From a virus (lineage: Duplodnaviria > Caudoviricetes), in IMG/VR virus record IMGVR_UViG_3300037067_026718, positions 64,001-128,000 of that record: a stretch of 64,000 nucleotides of DNA, one strand, 5' to 3'. The notes beneath the pieces were generated by a model. The model saw only the letters and a program-made list of their open reading frames with translations, did no database searches and was not told the DNA's origin. A program made the translations under genes and the position numbers. Below are positions 1-62,832 of this stretch, piece by piece (position 1 is the first letter of the stretch; every line of letters starts with the position of its first letter).

Positions 1-1222
1 TGTTGACACCAACTCGGTCAGTGGTCGGCGTGAAGATGGGATCGATGAACCCCATGGAGCTGTCATTCAGCTCTCTCATGCCTTCCGTGATGGCATAGGA
101 GGAGCCCACACCGCCTTCGCCCATCTGAGTGACCTCAGTGGCATCAGAGAGGATCCCTATTGGATTTATCTGTTCGGGGTTGTAGACGACATCAGCCTGA
201 ACGAACTTGCTGCTCATCAGCTTCCGGATCTCAGAAAGTGGCCTGGCCAGAATGTCTTTCTCGTCATACTGGTTGCTGTCCACCCTGTAGGCCAGCTTGT
301 TCTTTATCTTGTTTGCCTGGTTCTCGATGCCGTAAAGGATGAGATCGTTGTATCCATAGATGTCCTGGAAATGCAGATCATCCCTGTTGTCAGGCTTCAC
401 TGTGCCGGCGCTGACGTCCAGCATCTTTCGGGTGGCATCCATCAAAGCATGGCGGTCTGCAGCCTTGTATTCCTTGCCCAGAGTTACTTTGGACACCCAT
501 GGGTCAAGAACGGTGGTTTCAAAAGCAGCCTTGAGCTGATCGGCCTTCTCGTTCGAATTTCTTGCTGTTCCTGTGTAGCTGAGCATCGTGCTGTACAAAC
601 GCTCAAGCACGGAGCTATGGGTAGAAGGAGAGCGGAAGTTGGCCCTGTAGATCTGCTCACCCCATTGTTTCTGTATCTGCTCATCGGGAACGCCCAGTAT
701 CCTCAGTACGGAATAAGCCGGAAAAGCCTTTCCTCCTACATCAAACCTGATTCTCATGGTCTCGGGATCGTAGTTGATCTTGATGTTCTGCCGTGTCTTG
801 GTATTGATGAAAGCCTGCACGCCATCAGCCTGTTTGGTAACGTATATCCCCGGGGAAAGCCGCAACTGCTTCTTGACAGATACTTCGGACCCTTCCACAA
901 CGAAAGTCCCCCTGGCTGTCGGGAAAGGCAGTCTGAACAGGATTTTGCCGGCGCTTCTCTTCTTCTCATTACCGCGCTCGTCGGTCATGACAATGTCGGC
1001 CCTTATCGGTATGGAATAGCTTGAGTCTCTTTCTCGGGCCGCTCTCTCGAGCGCAGGGTTGACCAGTTTGTCGGGAAGGTCGAACTTGATGTTCTCAATT
1101 CGTATTCCCCGCAACTTTCCCTGGTAAGAAAGGATCTGGGGCAGTCTTTCCCGGAGGCTCGAAAGCAGAGTGACGTAGTCTCGGTAGACATCTATTCGAT
1201 GCAGATTTTCATCAATACGCAT
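1..1222 (-). CDS. rpoB: Phage-encoded multi-subunit RNA polymerase beta subunit (N-terminal ~407 aa; runs off the left edge; absent from the ORF track)
   Basis: Manual translation from ATG at 1222 (AAGGAAAAGG upstream) is open to base 2. It contains EARERDSSYSIPIRA, LPFPTARGTFVVEGSEVSVKKQLRLSPGIY, FPAYSVLRILG, PDNRDDLHFQ and EQINPIGILSDATEVTQMGEGG...RELNDSSMGFIDPIFTPTTDRVGV, collinear with conserved RpoB blocks. Confidence 0.92.
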   Translation of the reverse strand, partial: MRIDENLHRIDVYRDYVTLLSSLRERLPQILSYQGKLRGIRIENIKFDLPDKLVNPALERAARERDSSYSIPIRADIVMTDERGNEKKRSAGKILFRLPFPTARGTFVVEGSEVSVKKQLRLSPGIYVTKQADGVQAFINTKTRQNIKINYDPETMRIRFDVGGKAFPAYSVLRILGVPDEQIQKQWGEQIYRANFRSPSTHSSVLERLYSTMLSYTGTARNSNEKADQLKAAFETTVLDPWVSKVTLGKEYKAADRHALMDATRKMLDVSAGTVKPDNRDDLHFQDIYGYNDLILYGIENQANKIKNKLAYRVDSNQYDEKDILARPLSEIRKLMSSKFVQADVVYNPEQINPIGILSDATEVTQMGEGGVGSSYAITEGMRELNDSSMGFIDPIFTPTTDRVGVN

Positions 1223-1236
1223 TGGTGGCCTTTTCC

Positions 1237-1875
1237 TTAATGAGCTTTCCTGCGAGGCAGCTCGGGGGACATAAGCTCTGCTGATGTTCTCGTGGCCTGA
1301 CTTGGTTTATTGATGCATTCGTAAATATCAGGAAGGTTGGCCCAGATGCATGGCGGAGTCTTTTCAAACGGAATGATCTCGGAAGAGACGGCATTGATGG
1401 CAGCATCCAGAGGGCCATCGGCTGCTTCTACGGCTGCACGCGCTCCCGTAGAGCATACGTAGTGATTCCTGCCAAACCCGAAAATCCTGGTGCCTAAGTC
1501 CATGTCTACAAGCTCGCCAAGATCATAAAGCATGCCTGAGTGTTTGAGGCAGAAAGCATAGAGAGGCTCGGGGTTCAGTGGTCCTTTCTTCTTGCGATAG
1601 ACCAGGGCATAGCTGGGATCCACAAGGTCATCGGTGATCTCGCATGGAGTGGAGCATGGATCGGTCCAATGGAATCCTGTGACTATCCCATGGATCTTGT
1701 CTTCTATGACTCGGTTGTGTGTGGCATGGGGGAATACGCAATTTTCGCCCAGCACTCTCTGGCTGTATTTTCTGACTCTCCAGTTGAAAAACTTCTTGAC
1801 GAAATTCCACCATTCAGGCTTTTTGTAGCTGACGATGATATCGCCTGGCCTTAGATCTGAAACAGTGAAAGGCAT
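1237..1875 (-). CDS. Permuted papain-like NlpC/P60 (YaeF/YiiX-type) enzyme
   Basis: LRPGDIIV, ATH (His), YD.. and YVCS (Cys) in the permuted order. Confidence 0.7.
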   Translation of the reverse strand: MPFTVSDLRPGDIIVSYKKPEWWNFVKKFFNWRVRKYSQRVLGENCVFPHATHNRVIEDKIHGIVTGFHWTDPCSTPCEITDDLVDPSYALVYRKKKGPLNPEPLYAFCLKHSGMLYDLGELVDMDLGTRIFGFGRNHYVCSTGARAAVEAADGPLDAAINAVSSEIIPFEKTPPCIWANLPDIYECINKPSQATRTSAELMSPELPRRKAH

Positions 1876-1903: not shown

Positions 1904-1931
1904 ATTATACCCGAATACGGGTTCCACGCAA
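1904..1931 (-). promoter_or_regulatory. Class I promoter TTGCGT-16-TATAAT
   Basis: Intergenic; the same geometry occurs at six other sites. Confidence 0.6.
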
Positions 1932-1935
1932 GAGA

Positions 1936-1959
1936 AAGGCCCCGCTCGTGCGGGGCCTT
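1936..1959 (-). terminator. Intrinsic terminator
   Basis: 10-bp stem AAGGCCCCGC/GCGGGGCCTT followed by TCTCTT, just after the 834-aa gene. Confidence 0.65.
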
Positions 1960-1982: not shown

Positions 1983-4487
1983 TTACTGGCCCAGGTTGGC
2001 CCAGAAGGACGCTACCTTCTCGACGTCGCCACCTGTGGCTGCCATGAGCTTGTTGTTGACCCTCTCGGCCACCTTCTCGAAGAACAGGGCTTCCTTGGCG
2101 GCAGCGATCTTCTCGAGCATGGGGTTGTGGTCCTGGGCTTCCAGAAGGGCTGCGAGCTTCTGAAGGGAAGCTTCCCTCTGGGAGAGGGCTCCACCGGCGA
2201 AACCGGCGCCACCGATTCCGAGGGCCGCGAGGAGGGCCGGAACCTTGAGGTTGCGTTTGCCACCGATGCCAGCGATACCCTTGCTGCCACCGATGCGGGA
2301 CATCAGCTCAGCGAGGGCCGGCTTCTGCTTGCCCTTCAGAAGGGGAAGAAGGGCGGCGAGGGGACTGGCCTTTGCCCAACCGGGCATGGCTCCATAGCCC
2401 TTGGCTGCCGCGGAACCGAGGCCCTTGGCTGCCGAACCGATGCCCTTGGCGGCTGTACCGAGAGCCTTCTTGTCGGTGTTGTAGATCCACTTGGCTGCAC
2501 CGGTGTTGGCGCCCATGATGGCCTTGAGGGCCTTCATGAGGCCGTTGTCGCTCTTGCCGCGACCAAGCAGGCTGGCGAGGTTGGGGGCTGCGCTTTTTTC
2601 CATCATCTCACTGATCTGAATGATGGCTGCGATCTTCTCGGACTTCGTCATTTCTGTTCCTTCCATCAGTGCTGCAATTTTCTGCAGGCTTGCCGTTCTG
2701 TCTCTGTTCAAGTAAGCCGCGGTACCCAAGCCACCCAGACCAAGGGCGGCTATGCCCGATTCTACTGGACGGTTACGCATGTAACCAAGGACGCTTTCTC
2801 CTCCTCTTCCGATTCCCCTCATGGCCTTCCCGGGGATTCCAGCGAGGTCTCCCAGAAGTTCACGGATAACCTCTCTGTTCTTTTTCCTTCTGGCTTCTTT
2901 CGCCAAGTCCACCTTGGAAAAAAGGCCTCCAAGCAATGTCTTGGGGAAAATCTTACGGTTGAGCCTGTAGTTACTCCTGAGAAAAGCGGCCTTGTTCATC
3001 GTATCATCCCTTTCCAACGAAGAGTTTTTCTTGATGGCGCTTCCTATGCCATACCCTGTTCCAACCAACCCTATGCCAGCAAGAGCCGCCGGCAGTCTGA
3101 GATCTCTCTGTGCGCCTACTCCCAGCAGCCCTCTGCGGCCCTTGAGCGACCGAAGTACTCCTTCGATACCGGCAGGCTGCAACTTCATCGCCAAGCTGCC
3201 AAGGCCTTGGTTGAAGCGCCTCCAAGGCATCAGGCGACCGAACATGATGGCCTGGGCGATGGCGTCGTGGTTGGTTGTTTTGGCCTTGATGGCACCGATG
3301 GCCTGACGAGTATTTTCTCCACCCTTACCAAGCCCCATATTGCCACCGAAGCTCTTCAAGGCGTTGATGAAATCTTTCCCTGAAGTAAGCGTGTCTGCAA
3401 AACCCTTGGGAAGAAGCCGCTGCACGAGTCTAGTATTCAGAAGTCTCATCCCAATATTCGATGCAAAACCGGCCTCTTTCAACATCGAGGCGGTCCTTTC
3501 GGGAAAGACATACGCTGGCCGTCTCTCGCGCCGGCGTGTATTGGCAAGTCCAAAGGCCAGTCCGCCAACTCCCAGACCTGCTGCGGCCAATGCAGCCGGA
3601 GTCATGAGATTCCTTCTGGCGCCGTAGCCCATGATGCCTTCGCTGCCTCCGAGCCTGTGAGCAATGCCGGTCAAGCCTCTGGGATTTGCAAAGGCGCCGA
3701 TGCCGAGGTTCTTCATGAGGTTGATGAACTTCAGGGGATTGATGCCCTTGGTTACCCCCATGTACGTGTTGATTGTCTTGAACAACTTGTAGAACTGTTC
3801 TGCAGTCATGCCGGACTGGGCTGCTGGAGCACTGGCAGCCGCCGGGGCAGCCGCCGCTACTGTTGCTCCTTTTCCACCAAAAAAGCGTTTGATCGCCGGC
3901 CAGACGGCATCCATCCGCCCAGCCTCTTTGATCAAGGCATGTCTGAGCGATGCCTTCTTGAACCTGCTGGGGGCCCAGGCGGCTGCCAGCGCAGCAGTCA
4001 AGTCTGGCGGTTTTTGGTGAAGCCTCTTTATAATATCATCCGAATTTGTAAGATCAAGACGAGGTGAATTTCTTCGACTTTTAATGGAATCGTAAGCTCG
4101 CTGAATCAAAGCTTCTCTATCAGCAGTTGCTGCTTTTCCACGCCAGCCACCAAAAAAGCGATTTAAGGCATCCATCCATCCGGCCTCTTTGACCAAAGCA
4201 AGTCTGAGCGATGCCGGCTTGAACTTGGGATCATCATTTACGGCAACCTGACTGACGGGCGGCGTGACAGGGGTATTGAGCGCAGCCATGAAAGAAGAAG
4301 CCGGTCCTCCCTTTCCGCCAGTGACGGAATTGGCAGCCTGTCTCCCTGCGGTCTGAAAGGTATTCAACGGAAACTTGTACTTGGGACCTGGGACACTTGA
4401 TATGGCATCAAGAGTCGGCTGAGCTGCCGAGCTCATTTTGGCCAGTTCCACCAACGCTGCCAATTTTCTGCGCTTCATACTGGTCAT
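1983..4487 (-). CDS. 834-aa modular Gly/Ala/Lys-rich protein; probable virion-internal polyprotein
   Basis: About 20 K-x-A motifs, repeated Gly-rich hydrophobic helices, own promoter and terminator. Confidence 0.8.
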   Translation of the reverse strand: MTSMKRRKLAALVELAKMSSAAQPTLDAISSVPGPKYKFPLNTFQTAGRQAANSVTGGKGGPASSFMAALNTPVTPPVSQVAVNDDPKFKPASLRLALVKEAGWMDALNRFFGGWRGKAATADREALIQRAYDSIKSRRNSPRLDLTNSDDIIKRLHQKPPDLTAALAAAWAPSRFKKASLRHALIKEAGRMDAVWPAIKRFFGGKGATVAAAAPAAASAPAAQSGMTAEQFYKLFKTINTYMGVTKGINPLKFINLMKNLGIGAFANPRGLTGIAHRLGGSEGIMGYGARRNLMTPAALAAAGLGVGGLAFGLANTRRRERRPAYVFPERTASMLKEAGFASNIGMRLLNTRLVQRLLPKGFADTLTSGKDFINALKSFGGNMGLGKGGENTRQAIGAIKAKTTNHDAIAQAIMFGRLMPWRRFNQGLGSLAMKLQPAGIEGVLRSLKGRRGLLGVGAQRDLRLPAALAGIGLVGTGYGIGSAIKKNSSLERDDTMNKAAFLRSNYRLNRKIFPKTLLGGLFSKVDLAKEARRKKNREVIRELLGDLAGIPGKAMRGIGRGGESVLGYMRNRPVESGIAALGLGGLGTAAYLNRDRTASLQKIAALMEGTEMTKSEKIAAIIQISEMMEKSAAPNLASLLGRGKSDNGLMKALKAIMGANTGAAKWIYNTDKKALGTAAKGIGSAAKGLGSAAAKGYGAMPGWAKASPLAALLPLLKGKQKPALAELMSRIGGSKGIAGIGGKRNLKVPALLAALGIGGAGFAGGALSQREASLQKLAALLEAQDHNPMLEKIAAAKEALFFEKVAERVNNKLMAATGGDVEKVASFWANLGQ
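3870..4225. repeat. Imperfect direct repeat (~3870-3965 and ~4145-4225) inside the 834-aa gene
   Basis: Encodes FKKASLRHALIKEAGRMDA..KRFFGG vs FKPASLRLALVKEAGWMDALNRFFGG; shared DNA CCACCAAAAAAGCG and GTCTGAGCGATGCC. Confidence 0.8.
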
Positions 4488-18584: not shown

Positions 18585-18942
18585 CCGTTTTCATGCGTTC
18601 TACAGTACCGGGGGCAGTTGATGCTTTCCTTGCTTTGTTTTTTGCTTCTGCTATTTCGATAGCCCTGTCCCTCAGGGGAATATGGTGGTTCTTGTTTGCA
18701 GGATCAAAGGCTAATTTCTGCTTGAAGGGTCGTAATTCTGTCAAGGCTTTGGTCATGGTTCTCATGTTTCTGGATTCATGTGCGGCTGTGATCCTGGCCA
18801 TCATCCTGTCGAGAGTACGATCGTCGGGGAAGTGGTACTTGGCCCCAAGATAAGAAATGGTTTTCAGCTTCTTGACCATGCGGGGTGATGCCGTAACAGT
18901 CAAGTAAGCTTCGTCCTGGCTAACAAGGGATCTTTTGGACAT
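18550..18942 (-). CDS. Hypothetical basic protein
   Basis: Operon packing. Confidence 0.55.
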   Translation of the reverse strand: MSKRSLVSQDEAYLTVTASPRMVKKLKTISYLGAKYHFPDDRTLDRMMARITAAHESRNMRTMTKALTELRPFKQKLAFDPANKNHHIPLRDRAIEIAEAKNKARKASTAPGTVERMKTDEEGSSTHGLE

Positions 18943-19924
18943 CTTCGTTCCTTTCTTTTATTTCTTCTTTTATCGGGTATAAATATAATGGACCAAGAAT
19001 CACCTTGGGCCTCATACAGAAGGAGAACATCATGATGGATCCTAGCCTGGAAGACACCGACTTCGGTTTTGATACCGAAGAAATAGAGGACTTCTGGGAC
19101 TCAGAAAGCTCAGAATCCCAGTAAGCGCCGCGTCTTTTGGGGGGGTCTTGTGCCGCAAGGCCCTCCCTCACCCTCGATTCGGCCTTGCCCAGGATCTGTC
19201 TGATTCTTTCTCTGGACAGATTGAGAACATGGCCTATCTCTCGTAAAGTGTGCCTGTGGCACTGCAGACCATGGCGCCGACAAAACACATCTTTTTCCCT
19301 GGCCGGAAGACCAGATACGATCGCCATGATTTTGTCCATCATGATCCCATCGGCTATCTCGTCTTCTCCGGACTGACATGAAACCACTTCATCGTTGTAT
19401 TCCTCGTACTGCAGACAGCTCACCGCGCTGTTGATCCTATTCATGTCGAGATTGAGGTCCGCTGCCAAGCCAAGGTAGTCTACATCCTCCATGGTTCTCT
19501 GCATGAGTTCAGCACTGAGCTGCCTGACAAAATCGATCTGGTAGAGAGTCCCGGGAGGAACATAAGCACAGGTGCTGGTAGTCCTGATGTACTTGTTGAT
19601 CCTCTGCTTTGCCCATTTTTTGGCGTACGTAGCAAACTTCGTGCCTCTGTCCGGGTCGAAACGGGACGCTGCTTCATAGTACCCGTCGATACCGCAGGAT
19701 ATGATGTCTTCAAAACAAATCGGAGGCTTGATGTAGTACTCCTGAGCGCAGGCGATGAAAAGGTATCTGAGATTGGCCATGACCAGTTTATTTTTAGCTT
19801 CAGCCACATCGTTGGGATTGTCTGAGGACTGAATGATGACTCCCAGCCGATGTTCTTCTTCCCTCGTTATGGGAACGGCTTCCGCAAGCATTCCTCTGTA
19901 ACTGTCAGGGATGAATGGCTTCAT
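18920..19924 (-). CDS. Sigma-70 family factor (RpoD/RpoS/RpoH-like)
   Basis: ITREEEHRL (region 1.2), LVMANLR, RFDPDRGTKFATYAKKW (region 2), TLREIGHVLNLSRERIRQI (region 4.2). Confidence 0.92.
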   Translation of the reverse strand: MKPFIPDSYRGMLAEAVPITREEEHRLGVIIQSSDNPNDVAEAKNKLVMANLRYLFIACAQEYYIKPPICFEDIISCGIDGYYEAASRFDPDRGTKFATYAKKWAKQRINKYIRTTSTCAYVPPGTLYQIDFVRQLSAELMQRTMEDVDYLGLAADLNLDMNRINSAVSCLQYEEYNDEVVSCQSGEDEIADGIMMDKIMAIVSGLPAREKDVFCRRHGLQCHRHTLREIGHVLNLSRERIRQILGKAESRVREGLAAQDPPKRRGAYWDSELSESQKSSISSVSKPKSVSSRLGSIMMFSFCMRPKVILGPLYLYPIKEEIKERNEDVQKIPC

Positions 19925-34933: not shown

Positions 34934-36046
34934 CTATACCGGCGCACTGGTTGTGGAGTCGGGTTTGCCCATTCTGAGCCCTTGCTGCTCATATACGCTA
35001 TCATCATACCTTTTCTGTCCAAAAGGAAGACCGCTGTCGGAAACCACCCAGTCCGGAAGCTTGAAGTCGCGCTTGGTGCTGGGGAAGAAATCAGAGAAAA
35101 GACGACTGGAGTAATGGGTGAAGTGTATCTGATCAAGCACGGCTATCTGTCGATACTCGTCTGTGCTTAGTTCAACAGCTACATTCTCGAGCATTTCAGT
35201 GGTTATCTCATCGATGTCGACCTCGGAAGAAAACTTGTAGGCTTCGTTGGGATTTGATGAAATACTGCCGCTGATCTTGTGTATGAACGTACTTGCGAAG
35301 TAAGGGGCGAATCCACCAGGCCCTGTCAGGCCGAAATGGATATCTCTCTCCATGTGGGGGTCTCCCTTGCCTTCAACATGTACTTCATCGATGCTCGGGA
35401 AAAGCCTCATGAGGGTAGTGCGGACGCTGCCTTTGGTGATAAGAAGGTCCCTGGTATTGACGCTCTCGGACATCCGGGCGTGGTAAGCCTCGTTGTCTTC
35501 ATGTATAACTCCGCCGGTTGCCGGAACGATGTTGGTCGTCCTGGTCCACTGAGCGTAAAGCGGATCCTTGATGTCCGATATCATTCCTGTATCGACGTTG
35601 TACTGGTCGCCCTGCGCTATGGCTTGAACAGTGAACTGGATGTAGTATTCATTGCCGATGCGCTGAGACTGGACACGAGATGCGCTGAACTCGTGCTTTT
35701 CAGTCGTGGCGAAAATCAGATCCATTCCCACTCTCCACCCGACGGGAATTACGATTCTGGAGGGTGAAGAGAAATAGATGCGCTGTACGGTACGGGCAAA
35801 GCCCCCGGTGTTTCTGGGGAGGAAGACCATGCCTCCTATGGCATCGAGCTGAGTTTCGGACATGTCGTTGTGAGCCGCTGGATTGGTGGCAGCCGCTATG
35901 GCGTCTATGCGCCTGTAGACGTAATCAAGGATCTCGGCAACGGCGTGGATGAACAAGTCGAAGACGCCTGTGCCCTTTGCATACGCTATCTTGGGCCGAT
36001 GTTCTTTAAGCCATCCTACAATGAAATTGATGATGTTATTGACCAT
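34934..36046 (-). CDS. Baseplate J-like wedge protein
   Basis: LDAIGGMVFLPR, IPVG, VQAIAQGDQYNV, ATGG..EDNEAYHARM. Confidence 0.85.
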   Translation of the reverse strand: MVNNIINFIVGWLKEHRPKIAYAKGTGVFDLFIHAVAEILDYVYRRIDAIAAATNPAAHNDMSETQLDAIGGMVFLPRNTGGFARTVQRIYFSSPSRIVIPVGWRVGMDLIFATTEKHEFSASRVQSQRIGNEYYIQFTVQAIAQGDQYNVDTGMISDIKDPLYAQWTRTTNIVPATGGVIHEDNEAYHARMSESVNTRDLLITKGSVRTTLMRLFPSIDEVHVEGKGDPHMERDIHFGLTGPGGFAPYFASTFIHKISGSISSNPNEAYKFSSEVDIDEITTEMLENVAVELSTDEYRQIAVLDQIHFTHYSSRLFSDFFPSTKRDFKLPDWVVSDSGLPFGQKRYDDSVYEQQGLRMGKPDSTTSAPV

Positions 36047-36503: not shown

Positions 36504-38350
36504 ACCCTCTCGGCTATTTCCAAAGCTGTATCGATGTTGCCCTGTAACTCATCCAAGCGCTTCTGAAGACCGGCCAGTGCCTGGAACTGCAGAGCCGGAA
36601 GCATGGTTGCCGACCTGGCTCTGGCCAAAGACGCTCCGGCTTCATCCTGATAAAGCTGCTCCACCTGTCTCCTTATACCCTTCGATTCGCCCGGAGCTAT
36701 CTCGTCTTCCCCCATGTTGGATAATACTCCGGAAAGGCATTGGGCGACAGTGCTTCCAGCTACTACCGATTCAATCGTCATCTCGAGAAAGCCAGGGATG
36801 AAACCTGACTCCAGCATCTTCAACGGTGCGCTCCATCCGGCGTTTGCAAGCCACGTAATCACGTAATCGTACTTTTCGTCTTCATACCCGGAGAACCGGT
36901 TCAGCATGTTCTCCATCTGGGCATCCCGATTGGATATGGCATTCACGTCCGTCTTGATCCTGTTGAGCTCGAATGCCCACTGGTCATGCCGCAGGAAGAA
37001 TGAAGAAAGGTCGGCCGTGGTGGCCATCAACCTGGAAAGAATCTGCTGGATCTCCGAAACACTGTAGTTGACTTCGGACAAGGATTTCAACCCGTCGTTG
37101 GGCGTATGGGGATGAATGATGTACGCCAGGTCGGAGGTAGCCTCCTGGTTGGTCGCGTACGAACTCACTCCGAAAGGCTGAGGAAGCTGGCCCAGTGTTT
37201 TGAGCATCATGAACAAGCCTTGCAGCTCGTTACGCCATGCGGCGGAGTGGATGGGAGCGCTCGATCTGCGGTTGTTCTCAACGACGTCCCTCATGTCGGC
37301 CCTGATGTCACTGATCCTTGTTCCAACGAACCACAGGGTATTGTCGCTCAACAGGACATCGAGAGCCAGACCGGTGTACTGATTCGACTGCAGGAACTGC
37401 AGGGCGCCTTCTGCATGGACGATAAGCTCTTTGTAGTACTGCAGCCTGACTGTCGTTTTCAGAAGGCAGTCATACCACTTTTTGAGATCGGTGAGGGTAT
37501 CGCCCAGTCTGTCTATGGAATCCAGGGTCTGCGACAGCTTGGTACGAAAGAAAGCAGGATCCAACGGGTCGAAGGCATGGTCTTTCATGAAGCTGGTGAA
37601 CATGTCGAGAAGGTCACCCACCAGCCCCCGGGGCGCCAGCTTCTGGATGGCCGTCAGGATCCTCCACTGTACCATTTCCAATTGGCTGTTGTCCCATCTG
37701 CCGTAAGCAGCGTTGGTATGGGCTCTGTAGGTTTCCTGTTCTGCCACCCTCAAGTTGAGATCGGCAGCCACTACGGCTTTCACGAATTCTCTCCACCAGT
37801 CGGTTTCCGAAAGATCGTTGATGTCACCCTCGAGGGTGGAGAGCAGATTGCGGATATTCCCAAGGATGATGGTTCTGTTGTGCAGCTCAGTCTGCATCTT
37901 GTTCACCAAAGACTGGACTGCAGCGAGAAGAATGGTCTCGGCATAACGGCATACCATGGTTTTCAGCATGACCCACATGATGTCGCTGAAAGATTTCCCC
38001 TTCGCAGCTTCGGATATCTGGTTTACAGTTCCGGAAGCGAATGAGACAAAATCGTTGATGAGATTCTCGAGGTAATCCTTGGATTCTCCCGCCCACAAAA
38101 GAGGCTGTCTCAGCATGATCTTGCCCAAAGTGATGACACCGTTCAACGCACTTGCCAATGCCTCTTGTATGCCTGCATACCGAGTGGTGGCTGATGAGTA
38201 CAGGGAAGCCACGAAACAGCCATAGAAGCAGGCATCACCCGCTACTTTGGTCATCATCTCAGCTACCTTGCGAAGGTCTCCCCCGACCGGTGGACCGTCG
38301 CAAAGCAAAACTGGTTCTTGGCACTCCGTTGAGACAAGTTCCTCAGACAC
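36497..38350 (-). CDS. Large helical hypothetical protein in the baseplate module
   Basis: 617-aa ORF overlapping both neighbours. Confidence 0.7.
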   Translation of the reverse strand: MSEELVSTECQEPVLLCDGPPVGGDLRKVAEMMTKVAGDACFYGCFVASLYSSATTRYAGIQEALASALNGVITLGKIMLRQPLLWAGESKDYLENLINDFVSFASGTVNQISEAAKGKSFSDIMWVMLKTMVCRYAETILLAAVQSLVNKMQTELHNRTIILGNIRNLLSTLEGDINDLSETDWWREFVKAVVAADLNLRVAEQETYRAHTNAAYGRWDNSQLEMVQWRILTAIQKLAPRGLVGDLLDMFTSFMKDHAFDPLDPAFFRTKLSQTLDSIDRLGDTLTDLKKWYDCLLKTTVRLQYYKELIVHAEGALQFLQSNQYTGLALDVLLSDNTLWFVGTRISDIRADMRDVVENNRRSSAPIHSAAWRNELQGLFMMLKTLGQLPQPFGVSSYATNQEATSDLAYIIHPHTPNDGLKSLSEVNYSVSEIQQILSRLMATTADLSSFFLRHDQWAFELNRIKTDVNAISNRDAQMENMLNRFSGYEDEKYDYVITWLANAGWSAPLKMLESGFIPGFLEMTIESVVAGSTVAQCLSGVLSNMGEDEIAPGESKGIRRQVEQLYQDEAGASLARARSATMLPALQFQALAGLQKRLDELQGNIDTALEIAERVC

Positions 38351-39077
38351 TCCGCAGCCTCGCGCTCCAGTTCTTCCGCCATTTGTAAACGTCTTCGATG
38401 CTCACATTGAGCTTGGCCGCCACCTCGGCCGGCTTCATCTCTTCTCCGCGGTTCATGGCCAGTACGAACAGATCGTACGCCTTGAGTTCCTTGCCACTCA
38501 GCTCCGCCCTGTAGTACCGGAGATTGTCCATGTTCCGGGACCGGATGGCTTCATGGACATTGGCTTCGGTCTCAGCTTCATCTGCTATCGAGCTGATGAG
38601 AGTAGTCGGCTGAATGCCCATGTTGACCCGCTCCACCGTGTCTTCATCAATACCGGTTGCCTTCGAAAGCTCAGTGATGTTCGGATACCGGCCTTTGGCG
38701 GTGAAGAAGTCTTCGTTGGCCTTACTGACCTGACCGAACAGAGATGATACTCCTTCGGGGAGATAGGTCGGGTTCTGCCTGGACGTCACGTATCTCTGCA
38801 GCGGGGCGAGGTTGGACATGACATGAGTGCTGATCTTGGCCTTCTCTGGATCGTACTTTTCCATGGCGCTTCTGGCGAGGATGTACGCTCTTCCCCTGAT
38901 GTCGGACATAGGTACAGGGTATCCTTTGAAACGGCTGATGTAGCTTCGGATCAATGGATCCAAGGACTCTGCCAGGGATTCATAGGCTGTTTCGTCGCCG
39001 CCCTGCCATTGCTGCCACAAAGCGAGCTGATCTTCGTCTCTGGCCATGCTAGAGCTCCTCAGCCTGGGTTGAGCCAT
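38343..39077 (-). CDS. Sigma-70 family factor (SigF/FliA-like, divergent)
   Basis: WQGGDETAYESL, AMEKYDPEKAKISTHV, GRYPNITELSKATG (region 3), PAEVAAKLNVS (region 4). Confidence 0.8.
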   Translation of the reverse strand: MAQPRLRSSSMARDEDQLALWQQWQGGDETAYESLAESLDPLIRSYISRFKGYPVPMSDIRGRAYILARSAMEKYDPEKAKISTHVMSNLAPLQRYVTSRQNPTYLPEGVSSLFGQVSKANEDFFTAKGRYPNITELSKATGIDEDTVERVNMGIQPTTLISSIADEAETEANVHEAIRSRNMDNLRYYRAELSGKELKAYDLFVLAMNRGEEMKPAEVAAKLNVSIEDVYKWRKNWSARLRSV

Positions 39078-60147: not shown

Positions 60148-62832
60148 TTACTTTCCGATGGGACGCAACCCCTCGAAAGACTTGTATGCACCGCCCAATC
60201 GGACGGCTGCGATTTTGGGATCTTCCTTATCGTTGTAGCTCCCTTCAGCGTACTCCTTTATTCTTGACTGACAGGCAACTACGAGGTCGGCTCGTTTGTA
60301 GAACTCATTCTGCCAGTCGGTGTTCATGAAGGTGGCAACCACATGTTTGGCGTAGTCGCTTGAAACCATGGGGGCGCCATGGGCTACTTTCTCCATTGAA
60401 GCTGTTTTCTGCCTTGTCAGGTCGAAGCGAGGTAAAAAAGAACGGACAGGCAGGAATGGAGCAAGCAACTGGGCGACCTTGTAGTTGTAGGCTACTCTCC
60501 GCATGGGGACGTTCTTCACCGATGCCATCTTGGGGGACAGCATGATGGTAACGTGCTTCTTGATCACGATCGCCCTGGGCTTGTCACCGCTTTTGAGCGC
60601 ATCGATGACAGCGTATTCCTTGGGCATGACGTGCATCCCCATCAAGCCAGCCGTATCGAAGATGTCCTCGAAAGGATGCGATGCCAGTGCTTCGCATGTC
60701 TCCATCGGAAGCTCCGGAGTAATGGCGTCCTGGTAGCCCTCGGACTCCTTTTTGTCCTTGCTTTCCACGGAGACATCGGCGGTTATGTCTTCAGGGGAAG
60801 CTTTTTCTATTTCAGCTTCCTTGCTCTTGGCTGCTTCCTTGAAGAAGAGTGCTCCTGCATCGGCAGAGAAACCGGTGAAGTATACAGTTGTTCCTATGCC
60901 GGCAGCCTTGTTGAGCTCCTGGATGACATTGGTTCCTTTGTCCGCTCTGGTGAAGACGAAACTCTGGTCGAAGAAAGTCGGCTTTGTGTTGTGAACGCAA
61001 GTGATCCTTCCCCGGTTCGCCATGTCGTTGTAAGGATGGAACTGAAGAAGATGGTTCTTCGCGTGGTCACAGTACTCGGCCCGGGTCTTGGCTTTCTTGC
61101 CGCAGATGGAGCAGACGTCATAAGGAACCCTGCAGTTGTGAACAGCGATGCCATCCAATAGATAACTTTCGTCGTCAGAGACAGCAAAGTTATAGACATC
61201 ATCATCATATGGAACAACTTCATTCTCCTCAACAGGCGTAATGAGATACAGGACATCGTCTATCATGGAAAAGAATCTCTTGTTGTTTATTGTCTTCGAT
61301 CTTCCCAGTATATGTGATGACCGGTGAAGTCGATACGCTGTATCGGTTCCAATCCATATCTGATACTCTATAGTCTGCTTGCGTACCAGAGATCGTGGGC
61401 CCGGCTTATGAACTATGACATTAACAGAAGAGATCATCATACATCTAAGCAATATGATTTGTAGTTGCTTTGCAAGCTGGAAGGATGCTGTTGATAGATA
61501 GATGGAACCTTGATAGCAACCACCATCTCCATTAGCGTAAGCTCCCAAAAACTCTTGGAGGCTTTCTTCCTCAGCACCCATAATCGATGATGACAACGTC
61601 TTGCTGGTAGAGCCAACACCGCAATGTTCAATGCATAGTTCGGTAAAAGACCGATCATAAATGGTGATGTACTTACCATTTCGCTCTTCGATGTCACGCT
61701 CTGTGACAGAAGTGAACCCCATACGCTCTGCTAAAGACAGTATTTCTTGATGTATAGATGTCTCATGCAAACCTGTGCAGAATTGCACAGCCATGGGAGT
61801 TCCAGCCTTTGTATAGAGAGGACATCCTTCGGCTAGATAGTACCCCAAAAGGCGGCTTTCGTCGACAGAGAATTTCCTTGCAGCATCAAAAGTAGGTACT
61901 GGCGTTAGTAGGCGATCACCTATATCTACTTCATCAGCTCTGATCCATTCTGGCCTATATTTTATTTGTGTTTTGCAGGAAACGCAGCCTGACTTAATAA
62001 AAGGGCTATCTGGAGTACAGACCTGCTGACGACGTCCGCGGTTTATGTCGTTACTAGATGGTTTGCATAGAATTTGGTCAGATCTCAGAACCAAGAGGGG
62101 ATGTTCGTCTGTTAGAATGAGAGGATCACGGTTTCCATATACTTTGATATGATGAATATTGCCCCGGTGTTTACGTACCATTGTTGTAGTGACGGATTTC
62201 GGTACTCCTCTATGCGTTATCACTTTGTCACCAGAGGAGATTGTTTCGATGGGAACGTATTGACCATCGGAAGATAGAATCATTGATCCCTTTGGTACGC
62301 AGCCCATGCTGACATCCGGAAACTTGCCGCTTCTGATCCTGGCTATGATCTCGATCGACTTGCTGATGTCTTTGTCCAACCTGGATATGACCTCGATCCT
62401 GTGCATCTTGAGGTTGTAGCCCGTGGCTATGACCTTGCCAATACTCAGCTTTGGATCGCTGTTGTTATGAAGCAGGAAGGGATGGGCGTTGGTGAAAGTC
62501 CTGTAGTAACCATCATAGTAGATGTTCTGCTCTGGGAAGCTGTCCCCGTTGTTGTTGGGGCCGTAGTACTCGAAGGCCGACACGATGTTGATGTGAGTGT
62601 AGACATGCTTGTCGAAGTCGGGGTCGCAGTCATGCCAGAACTGGGCAAGCTCGTCGGGCATGACAGACAGGTCCATAGTGCTGTCCAGATCGGCTGATGC
62701 CATCTTGGCCATCGATTCCCTGGAAAGCAAAAGATGCATCCTGGGGCTGCCGAGAGGGTCATGGCTGCCAACGTTGACCAGTTTGATCATTCCGCCATCG
62801 GTTGGCATCGTCATCAGTACCTTCCGCTCCAT
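60148..62832 (-). CDS. Prohead maturation protease (intein-split) with a Zn finger and a K-x-A-rich C-terminal region
   Basis: NNNGDSF, PFLLHNN (His), IGKVI, DVSMG (Ser), CSICG..YCDH; position before scaffold and capsid genes. Confidence 0.75.
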   Translation of the reverse strand: MERKVLMTMPTDGGMIKLVNVGSHDPLGSPRMHLLLSRESMAKMASADLDSTMDLSVMPDELAQFWHDCDPDFDKHVYTHINIVSAFEYYGPNNNGDSFPEQNIYYDGYYRTFTNAHPFLLHNNSDPKLSIGKVIATGYNLKMHRIEVISRLDKDISKSIEIIARIRSGKFPDVSMGCVPKGSMILSSDGQYVPIETISSGDKVITHRGVPKSVTTTMVRKHRGNIHHIKVYGNRDPLILTDEHPLLVLRSDQILCKPSSNDINRGRRQQVCTPDSPFIKSGCVSCKTQIKYRPEWIRADEVDIGDRLLTPVPTFDAARKFSVDESRLLGYYLAEGCPLYTKAGTPMAVQFCTGLHETSIHQEILSLAERMGFTSVTERDIEERNGKYITIYDRSFTELCIEHCGVGSTSKTLSSSIMGAEEESLQEFLGAYANGDGGCYQGSIYLSTASFQLAKQLQIILLRCMMISSVNVIVHKPGPRSLVRKQTIEYQIWIGTDTAYRLHRSSHILGRSKTINNKRFFSMIDDVLYLITPVEENEVVPYDDDVYNFAVSDDESYLLDGIAVHNCRVPYDVCSICGKKAKTRAEYCDHAKNHLLQFHPYNDMANRGRITCVHNTKPTFFDQSFVFTRADKGTNVIQELNKAAGIGTTVYFTGFSADAGALFFKEAAKSKEAEIEKASPEDITADVSVESKDKKESEGYQDAITPELPMETCEALASHPFEDIFDTAGLMGMHVMPKEYAVIDALKSGDKPRAIVIKKHVTIMLSPKMASVKNVPMRRVAYNYKVAQLLAPFLPVRSFLPRFDLTRQKTASMEKVAHGAPMVSSDYAKHVVATFMNTDWQNEFYKRADLVVACQSRIKEYAEGSYNDKEDPKIAAVRLGGAYKSFEGLRPIGK
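61135..62301 (-). mobile_element. Intein with LAGLIDADG homing endonuclease (389 aa)
   Basis: CVPKGS start, LTDEHP block B, LLGYYLAEG and FLGAYANGDG, VYNFAV..AVHN|C end; visibly more AT-rich than its flanks. Confidence 0.93.

Follow-up and report, generated by a model that had tools for sequence, protein, structure and literature searches.

A fused beta-beta' RNA polymerase gene with an intein in its active-site loop, carried by a divergent tailed phage

The multisubunit-type RNA polymerases (RNAPs) known from phages are either extremely divergent and split, as in phiKZ and AR9, or encoded by two genes, as in the mReC type. The phiKZ/AR9 enzymes are built of relatives of beta and beta' which work without alpha or omega; they are split into 4-5 polypeptides, are too divergent to be placed with confidence, have a non-sigma fifth subunit and occur in phages without sigma factors (PMC7598289). 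Reviews of jumbo-phage RNAPs describe split enzymes alone, and assign sigma factors to the jumbo phages that lack an RNAP (PMC7598289, PMC7824862). The mReC type comes from a survey that described deep-branching beta and beta' on 97 metagenomic Caudovirales contigs and whose text mentions neither inteins nor sigma factors (PMC7481178). In the crAss-like gp66/YonO enzymes one polypeptide holds the whole catalytic core, which is unrecognisable by beta/beta' hidden Markov models (HMMs) (PMC7481178). Here we describe a gene that encodes beta and beta' in a single chain and thus departs from both the split and the two-gene forms. It was found at the edge of a 64,000-nucleotide stretch of the IMG/VR virus record IMGVR_UViG_3300037067_026718 (positions 64,001 to 128,000; hereafter the window), which corresponds to positions 64001-128000 of C3, a contig in a 295-contig metagenome-assembled genome (MAG, or bin).

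The initial annotation of the window had noticed an open minus-strand frame from position 1222 with collinear RpoB blocks, and had interpreted it as a hidden, streamlined RpoB subunit. The frame was absent from the list of open reading frames (ORFs) because such lists omit frames running past the end of the window, and frames cut by a window edge are in this way overlooked in annotation. Extension to the left along C3 revealed a frame of 7.2 kb without a single stop, which excludes a truncation directly beyond the window edge. The homology to RpoB was upheld, whereas the idea of a separate subunit was not: the frame is the N-terminus of an intein-carrying beta-beta' fusion, organised as follows.

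1 to 1222 of the window, minus strand: open frame (2-1222, ATG at 1222, no stop), the first 407 codons of the fused beta-beta' RNAP gene
-5956 to 1222 of the window (C3:58044-65222), minus strand: the whole RNAP gene, 2,392 codons, stop-free
residues 1-793: N-terminal part of beta, the N-extein
residues 794-1137 (C3:61812-62843), outside the window: LAGLIDADG intein of 344 aa
residues 1138 to about 1355, outside the window: C-terminal part of beta
residues about 1356-2392, outside the window: beta', with NADFDGD at 1743

The part of the gene lying within the window is sufficient to identify beta. In the 407-aa fragment, the Pfam model RNA_pol_Rpb2_3 matched residues 350-405 (E=1.9e-5, 25.1 bits, cut-off 21), and a phmmer search of the PDB returned bacterial beta chains alone (best E=8.5e-10), which align with residues 21-183 and with a second collinear stretch, 340-405. 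The equivalent of the PIETP motif, PIFTP, which had been placed near residue 400, is found at residues 395-399, and an RBS-like (ribosome-binding site) sequence, AAGGAAAAGG, lies 8-17 nt upstream of the ATG. The RpoB homology seen in these alignments is real, significant and above chance. It is also reflected in the predicted fold: an AlphaFold model of residues 1-793, based on a 22-sequence alignment, reached a pLDDT of 86.4 and a pTM of 0.82, and resembled bacterial beta chains (chain C) with TM scores of 0.77-0.80 (E 3.5e-44). All 50 listed structural matches of this model were bacterial beta.

The description of the subunit as streamlined was overstated. It relied on the position of PIETP in E. 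coli (about 560), and most of the shortfall of about 165 residues is an artefact of this reference, since 118 of them correspond to beta-SI1, an insert specific to the E. coli lineage; the remaining gaps before the motif are of 15 and 14 residues (29 in total).

Analysis of the full protein extended these results to beta'. Two beta models, Rpb2_3 (27.5 bits, cut-off 21) and Rpb2_6 (142.3 bits, cut-off 23.4), and two beta' models, Rpb1_2 (69.5 bits) and Rpb1_5 (43 bits), exceeded their Pfam cut-offs, in contrast to what is described for gp66/YonO. The matches to Rpb1_1 (18.3 bits, under the cut-off of 39.7), Rpb1_3 and Rpb1_4 were sub-threshold but correctly ordered. The C-terminal 1,255 residues matched beta' chains of the PDB with E=4e-89, in an alignment that extends from the clamp helices and switch 2 through NADFDGD to the bridge helix and trigger loop. 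E. coli beta' 765-806 and 910-945 are the counterparts of the bridge helix and of EPAVQLTLKAFHGGG, respectively. The search for a beta' gene with NADFDGD, proposed at the outset, therefore ended within the same chain, at residue 1743. The C-terminus of beta (…FAFKKLQALLKGAGIDV…) passes into the N-terminus of beta' with no linker between them. Judged by its sequence, the gene encodes a single-chain beta-beta' RNAP with both double-psi beta-barrels and the whole catalytic core.

The boundaries of the intein (…GDKL / CLSDDHEY … CWTGN / SNRHQAKG…) were defined by alignment of three intein-bearing and four intein-free orthologues, the latter reading GDK[ILF]-[ST][NG]R uninterrupted across the site. 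The element contains Cys1 (C794), a TxxH block (TLNH), a terminal Asn (N1137) followed by Ser+1 (S1138), and two LAGLIDADG motifs, LGYYIADG and LLSCDGS; LAGLIDADG_3 scored 25.1 bits against a cut-off of 22.5, and a sequence search of the PDB with the intein gave no match. It interrupts the loop of beta that corresponds to E. coli 1064-1075 and contributes lysines to the lining of the active site, and the GDKL/SNRHQAKG loop becomes contiguous solely after its removal. Because the GDK..R..KG loop is interrupted, protein splicing would have to precede enzyme function, converting a precursor of 2,392 aa into a predicted core of 2,048 aa.

Insertion at this site is not restricted to the window protein. 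An intein at the same position, with conserved splicing residues, is present in relatives of 74% and 53% identity, and a Cys directly follows GDKx in 26 of the 120 closest relatives. Moreover, a contiguous NADFDGD-type motif was not found in 36 of these 120, which suggests that the catalytic site of beta' is interrupted in them as well. The site is an intein hot-spot, and the clade would have such hot-spots in both catalytic loops, which is useful for studies of intein homing. Four relatives (P0017, P0021, P0054 and P0062; 3,550-3,966 aa) carry several intein/homing-endonuclease insertions (LAGLIDADG_2/3, Hom_end, Intein_splicing), and the intein load of such genes for fused RNAPs of about 4,000 aa is matched by few protein families.

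The spliced sequence was aligned with 16 intein-free relatives and with the RpoB and RpoC proteins of both the bin itself and E. coli. The equivalents of beta K1065, K1073, D814 (within NFMD) and R1106 (within SRNN) are kept, as are those of beta' R425, D460/462/464, the bridge helix and the FH.GG of the trigger loop. The inserts beta-SI1 (225-345), beta-SI2 (936-1047) and beta'-SI3, all specific to the E. coli lineage, are absent, and several short loops are also lost in comparison with E. coli. The N-terminal zinc-binding domain of beta' (67-98; C70, C72, C85, C88) is missing from the window protein and from each of the 16 relatives in the alignment. At the second zinc site (C814, C888, C895, C898) the window protein has A, S, Y and D; the Cys residues of this site are retained in the alignment consensus of the relatives. 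The rifampicin pocket is altered (Q513Y, F514N, D516E, H526D, R529E, S531T), and since its residues are rewritten in this way, the enzyme is probably insensitive to this antibiotic.

The gene resides on a phage genome. C3 is 157,672 bp long, its genes are nearly all on one strand, and it carries a gpA-type terminase large subunit (TerL), a baseplate wedge protein, a DNA polymerase exonuclease and a RecE-like nuclease. Segment C3:1-4696 recurs at C3:149068-153766 with 98.4% identity, followed by patchy matches of 90-95%, and this repeat of the first 4.7 kb implies a unit of about 149 kb. Rather than a clean direct terminal repeat, the pattern suggests an assembly that wrapped around a genome with circular permutation or terminal redundancy, built from two strain variants. 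No sequence of 20 nt or more is common to C3 and the other contigs of the bin, and the tetranucleotide correlation of C3 with the main chromosome is 0.58, compared with 0.94 for contig C2. We interpret C3 as the genome of a very divergent tailed phage that was binned together with a bacterium, and its membership of the bin is not evidence of its host; a search for spacer-like matches as a link to a host found none. The combination of tailed-phage hallmark genes with HMM-recognisable beta and beta' is the same as in the mReC contigs.

The frame might nevertheless be a cellular rpoB or rpoBC of the binned bacterium or of a contaminant, or the product of a chimera, considering that the contig was recovered in a bacterial MAG with an estimated contamination of 6.4% and with other rpoB loci on C2 and C262. 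This explanation is refuted, and we leave it a negligible chance: the RNAP frame is 24% identical to the bin's own RpoB, the contig bears terminase, baseplate and other phage genes, and the relatives of the RNAP are located on IMG/VR viral contigs. The phylogeny of beta' leads to the same result. In a tree of 65 rows and 980 columns (IQ-TREE quick search, LG+G4), which contained neither archaeal or eukaryotic nor published mReC sequences, a branch of 0.94 with SH-aLRT support of 100 sets apart all 23 bacterial beta' proteins. These come from at least 9 phyla and include the RpoC of the bin, encoded on C2, which clusters with a Chloroflexi-labelled protein. The window protein is placed deep on the other side of that branch, where it pairs with a 70%-identical sister in a subclade of 10 members that has full support; a second tree with additional short proteins gave the same picture. 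Nesting of the gene within a bacterial clade was therefore not observed, and the initial view of a phage-encoded, divergent, bacterial-style RNAP gene proved correct.

The bacterial rpoB loci of the bin are found at C2 574292-577411 and C262 1623-2738, the latter being a 576-aa fragment on a small contig and likely bin contamination. Phage contigs binned in MAGs can likewise add spurious rpoB copies.

The relatives of the protein are numerous and do not represent a rare oddity. A full-length search of 5.8 billion protein clusters identified at least 954 proteins of 1,315-4,186 aa at E<=1e-10, many of them encoded on contigs of 130-210 kb, and relatives on phage-sized contigs are 31-74% identical to the window protein. 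In one genome per species from 185,579 species, ordinary rpoB-rpoC loci matched at 24-29% identity, and just two phage-like loci were detected (31-32% identity), on contigs of 162 and 204 kb. The best 120 relatives include the following length classes.

1,900-2,130 aa, 39 of the best 120: median 2,057 aa, intein-free
more than 2,130 aa, 72 of the best 120: many with LAGLIDADG/intein Pfam matches
1,770-1,850 aa, 9 of the best 120: ending about 90 residues past the active site, like the isolates described below

In IMG/VR, at least 519 contigs carry a relative, and among the best 80 about 69 of the 72 uncut genes are single frames with both beta and beta' motifs. Fusion is thus the norm of the clade. 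Three candidates for split beta' genes (P0244, P0245, P0248) were rejected as fragments, because they start mid-gene on short contigs. No close fused homologue was found among 50,697 isolate/GenBank phage records, and our search of the literature found no account of a fused, alignable phage beta-beta' protein, although an earlier description is possible; automatic JGI names call some members "beta subunit/beta' subunit". The fused clade is large, uncultured and apparently undescribed.

Among the described systems, the mReC enzymes resemble the present one in being compact, HMM-recognisable beta and beta' proteins of uncultured tailed phages, mostly on contigs of 30-200 kb; they branch outside the cellular clades (PMC7481178). 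The protein of C3 lies outside the 23 bacterial sequences sampled here. In the portions of that study's data used here, beta measures about 1,000-1,050 aa and beta' about 900-1,000 aa, which sum to about 2,050 aa as in the present case, and the two are separate ORFs in every entry of part 10 of 14 of Supplementary Data 2, in contrast to the single 2,392-aa frame of C3. Unlike the phiKZ/AR9 enzymes, the present RNAP is one chain with clear homology and occurs together with sigma genes.

The nearest cultured kin are Vibrio phages D69, D181 and D148 and Salmonella phage Arash, whose RNAPs align along as much as 82% of the length at 26-30% identity. In these isolates beta also continues in frame into beta', but the gene is divided some 90 residues past the active-site motif, which gives chains of 1,525-1,527 and 606-609 aa. 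The motif itself reads AADYDGD, and in the beta' tree the isolates occupy a clade of their own. The TerL of Arash, a phage which also encodes a sigma factor, is the best-scoring isolate match to that of C3 (123 bits, others at most 96), and the isolates are therefore distant kin of the whole phage and not of the gene alone.

In-frame fusions of rpoB and rpoC, in which the C-terminus of beta likewise leads into the N-terminus of beta', are also found in Helicobacter and Wolbachia. These are full-size cellular enzymes of about 2,900 aa that still rely on alpha2 and omega and have retained their zinc sites. The protein encoded by C3 is viral, would measure 2,048 aa after splicing, has no zinc sites, and is accompanied by no alpha or omega gene that we could find.

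The initial annotation had also reported two sigma factors in the window, and both were recovered, the second with weaker matches.

18920 to 19924, minus strand: sigma-1, sigma-70-family factor of 334 aa with Pfam regions 2 and 4
38343 to 39077, minus strand: sigma-2, weaker sigma-like gene of 244 aa, inside the tail/baseplate block

Sigma-1 exceeds the Pfam cut-offs for region 4 (43.9 bits, cut-off 24.1) and region 2 (34.6 bits, cut-off 24), whereas in sigma-2 only Sigma70_r3 does so (27.4 bits, cut-off 25.3), with no single stretch passing alone, and region 2 reaches merely 17 bits. The former is about 30% identical to bacterial primary sigma factors and retains the -35-reading helix of region 4.2 (LSRERIRQI), in agreement with the TTGnnn -35 elements described below. 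The core-binding region 2.2 of this sigma clade is rewritten from EGNxGLxKAxxKF to CGIDGYYEAASRF. Together with the diverged clamp helices of the core, this change would fit co-adaptation of the two proteins, and is no proof of it. The C-terminal 80 or so residues of sigma-1 form a Ser-rich tail past region 4.2, ending in LYLYPIKEEIKER; relative P0126 (42% identical overall) has the same tail end, LYLYPIKQEIKER, and bacterial sigma factors lack this tail.

Alpha (RNA_pol_A_bac) and omega were sought on C3 with two Pfam models and neither was found; a second Rpb2-type gene was not detectable on the contig either. Taken as a whole, the locus is best explained by a tailed-phage RNAP of fused type, which is spliced, dispenses with alpha and works with the phage's own sigma factors, and we consider this probable. 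As neither alpha nor omega could be detected on the contig, the covalent beta-beta' link would most likely replace the assembly platform provided by the alpha dimer. Promoter recognition would most likely be conferred by the sigma-70-family factors of the phage. The holoenzyme might then consist of one large chain plus sigma, and could read promoters of the TTGnnn-N16-TAYAAT type and other phage promoters independently of the host core.

A number of observations weigh against this explanation. The intein scored 20.9 bits with the Intein_splicing model, under the cut-off of 35.8, and its penultimate His is replaced (the end reads ...WTGN, i.e. Gly-Asn). In the polymerase itself, the equivalents of beta E813 and H1237 are not kept, and the sigma-docking elements (clamp helices, flap tip) are poorly conserved. 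The absence of alpha and omega was read from two Pfam models, and the beta' tree is a quick single-matrix search of beta' alone with no archaeal or eukaryotic outgroup. Sigma70_r2 is recognisable on the contigs of only 5 of 12 large relatives, which may mean that not all members of the clade depend on sigma, or that their sigma factors have diverged too far for the model. Finally, activity and expression of the fused enzyme are predicted from sequence and model, and the phage sigma factors could redirect the host core, as those of T4 and SPO1 do.

Some of these points might indicate a decayed, non-catalytic relic, in which the intein-interrupted gene yields no active polymerase: an essential loop is broken up by an intein that has no penultimate His, both zinc sites of beta' are gone, and two beta residues have changed. 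We regard this as highly improbable, given that the 7.2-kb frame is free of stops and that the three catalytic Asp residues, the beta lysines, the bridge helix and the trigger-loop His are all kept. In addition, the 74%- and 53%-identical relatives have kept the intein in this position with its splicing residues conserved, and the absence of the N-terminal zinc domain from every aligned relative makes it a family trait and not a sign of decay.

The role of the sigma factors requires separate consideration. They might redirect the host RNAP (cf. T4 gp55, SPO1 gp28/gp34), in which case the fused enzyme would start alone or with another, unrecognised factor, much as the non-virion enzymes of AR9/phiKZ employ a non-sigma fifth subunit. 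Sigma-1 resembles bacterial primary sigma factors and has an intact region 4.2, the clamp helices and flap tip of the fused core diverge strongly from the sigma-binding bacterial consensus, a Pfam-recognisable sigma is limited to the above minority of large relatives, and reviews treat phage sigma factors as adaptors of the host core (PMC7598289). On the other hand, region 2.2 is rewritten at core-contact positions, which would be odd in a protein binding a conserved host core, and Arash has both a sigma factor and this type of RNAP, the two being present in its particle preparation (PMC10585845). In the 53%-identical relative, no gene that might encode such another factor is conserved next to the RNAP gene. 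We therefore hold redirection of the host enzyme to be rather unlikely and prefer a partnership between the fused core and the phage's own sigma factors.

The immediate surroundings of the RNAP gene contain the following features.

1237 to 1875, minus strand: 212-aa gene directly upstream of the RNAP gene, its stop 14 nt before the RNAP start
C3:57316-58044, minus strand: 242-aa downstream gene with an ATGA overlap with the RNAP gene, an HELGH motif (HExxH) and hydrophobic ends
1931 to 1904, minus strand: sigma-70-like promoter element TTGCGT-N16-TATAAT, 29 nt upstream of the 212-aa gene
1930 to 1957, minus strand: terminator-like hairpin GGCCCCG-CACGA-CGGGGCC followed by TTTCTCTT, between the 834-aa gene and the promoter
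1983 to 4487, minus strand: gene for an 834-aa Ala/Gly-rich protein with no Pfam or PHROG match

The hairpin was read from the sequence itself and is absent from the separate listing of such elements. The 212-aa protein matched neither Pfam nor PHROG; its model resembles Peptidase_C92/NlpC-P60 with a TM score of 0.67, which may serve as a lead only. Its gene and the RNAP gene are probably co-transcribed. The "class I promoter" assigned earlier to the RNAP gene is real as a sequence element, yet it precedes the 212-aa gene, and the RNAP gene is second in the unit; the site would drive the C92-like peptidase gene, the RNAP gene and the HExxH gene. A nearly identical promoter, TTGCGT-N16-TACAAT (window 4553-4526), lies ahead of the 834-aa gene, CTTGCGT-N15-GGTAYAAT being common to both. 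Four intergenic TTGnnn-N16-TAYAAT sites of the coding strand are situated 27-43 nt before start codons, and in total 11 such sites occur on the coding strand versus 2 on the other, compared with an average of 4.6 in shuffled sequences. An unbiased analysis of 7-mer enrichment in 79 upstream regions recovered terminator and RBS words alone, and no exotic promoter motif.

This arrangement bears on the suggestion, made in the initial annotation, that the RNAP is packaged in the virion. Such an enzyme (perhaps with sigma) would be injected and transcribe the earliest genes, so that host RNAP is never needed; this is compatible with a fused, sigma-dependent phage polymerase and concerns its timing and location alone. 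In a proteomic analysis of purified Arash particles, the beta-like Gp206 was the most detected protein, accompanied by the beta' protein Gp216 and the sigma factor Gp10 (PMC10585845), and Arash, whose RNAP is about 30% identical, offers the best TerL match among isolates and has its RNAP gene behind an annotated portal gene. Furthermore, a single RNAP gene is detectable on C3, its unit has the promoter type of the large structural-region genes, and it is flanked by the C92-like peptidase gene. The authors of the Arash study allow for carry-over of abundant enzymes, and the 116 "virion" proteins, which include ribonucleotide reductases, argue for contamination (PMC10585845). The consensus sigma-70-like promoter is just as compatible with transcription by host RNAP early in infection, as in the case of T7 gene 1. 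The "cargo-like" label given to the 834-aa protein remained unconfirmed in Pfam and PHROG. A comparison by tblastn of all C3 proteins with the locus of the 53%-identical relative identified five shared genes besides the RNAP, none of which adjoins the RNAP gene on C3; the C92-like, 834-aa and HExxH genes are not conserved there. Packaging is thus a possibility that we view with doubt. For the same lack of conservation, the flanking genes were dropped as candidates for accessory subunits.

Co-encoding of an RNAP with sigma-70-family proteins breaks the dichotomy, drawn in reviews, between phages with their own RNAP and phages with sigma factors. If active, the enzyme would be the smallest bacterial-type core with canonical motifs, and would be convenient for asking what alpha, omega and the zinc domains do and how sigma-core recognition co-evolves. 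It could also provide an orthogonal, sigma-programmable and possibly rifampicin-insensitive polymerase for synthetic biology. In the furthest-reaching version, which we find distinctly improbable, the whole clade would have a minimal, zinc-free, alpha/omega-independent chain of about 2,050 aa with co-evolved sigma factors, carried in the virion and making phages of about 150-200 kb insensitive to rifampicin and never dependent on the host polymerase.

The remainder of the window is poorly covered by known families. Among 20 large ORFs compared with PHROGs and Pfam there were almost no matches, and capsid and portal remain unconfirmed. The presumed structural region (window 20350-51032, minus strand) includes ten ORFs of 456-1,180 aa, none matching Pfam or PHROG, and is unusually dark even among large phages. 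Two features stand out.

34934 to 36046 of the window: baseplate-wedge match, close to the ten unmatched ORFs of the presumed structural region
60148 to 62832 of the window, minus strand: second intein-bearing gene, 894 aa, with Hint, Intein_splicing and LAGLIDADG_3 at about residues 178-566

Outside the intein, the 894-aa protein has no other family match. It shares with the RNAP intein the LAGLIDADG core alone (E=0.003), and since these endonuclease cores are merely 24% identical, the two inteins represent independent acquisitions.

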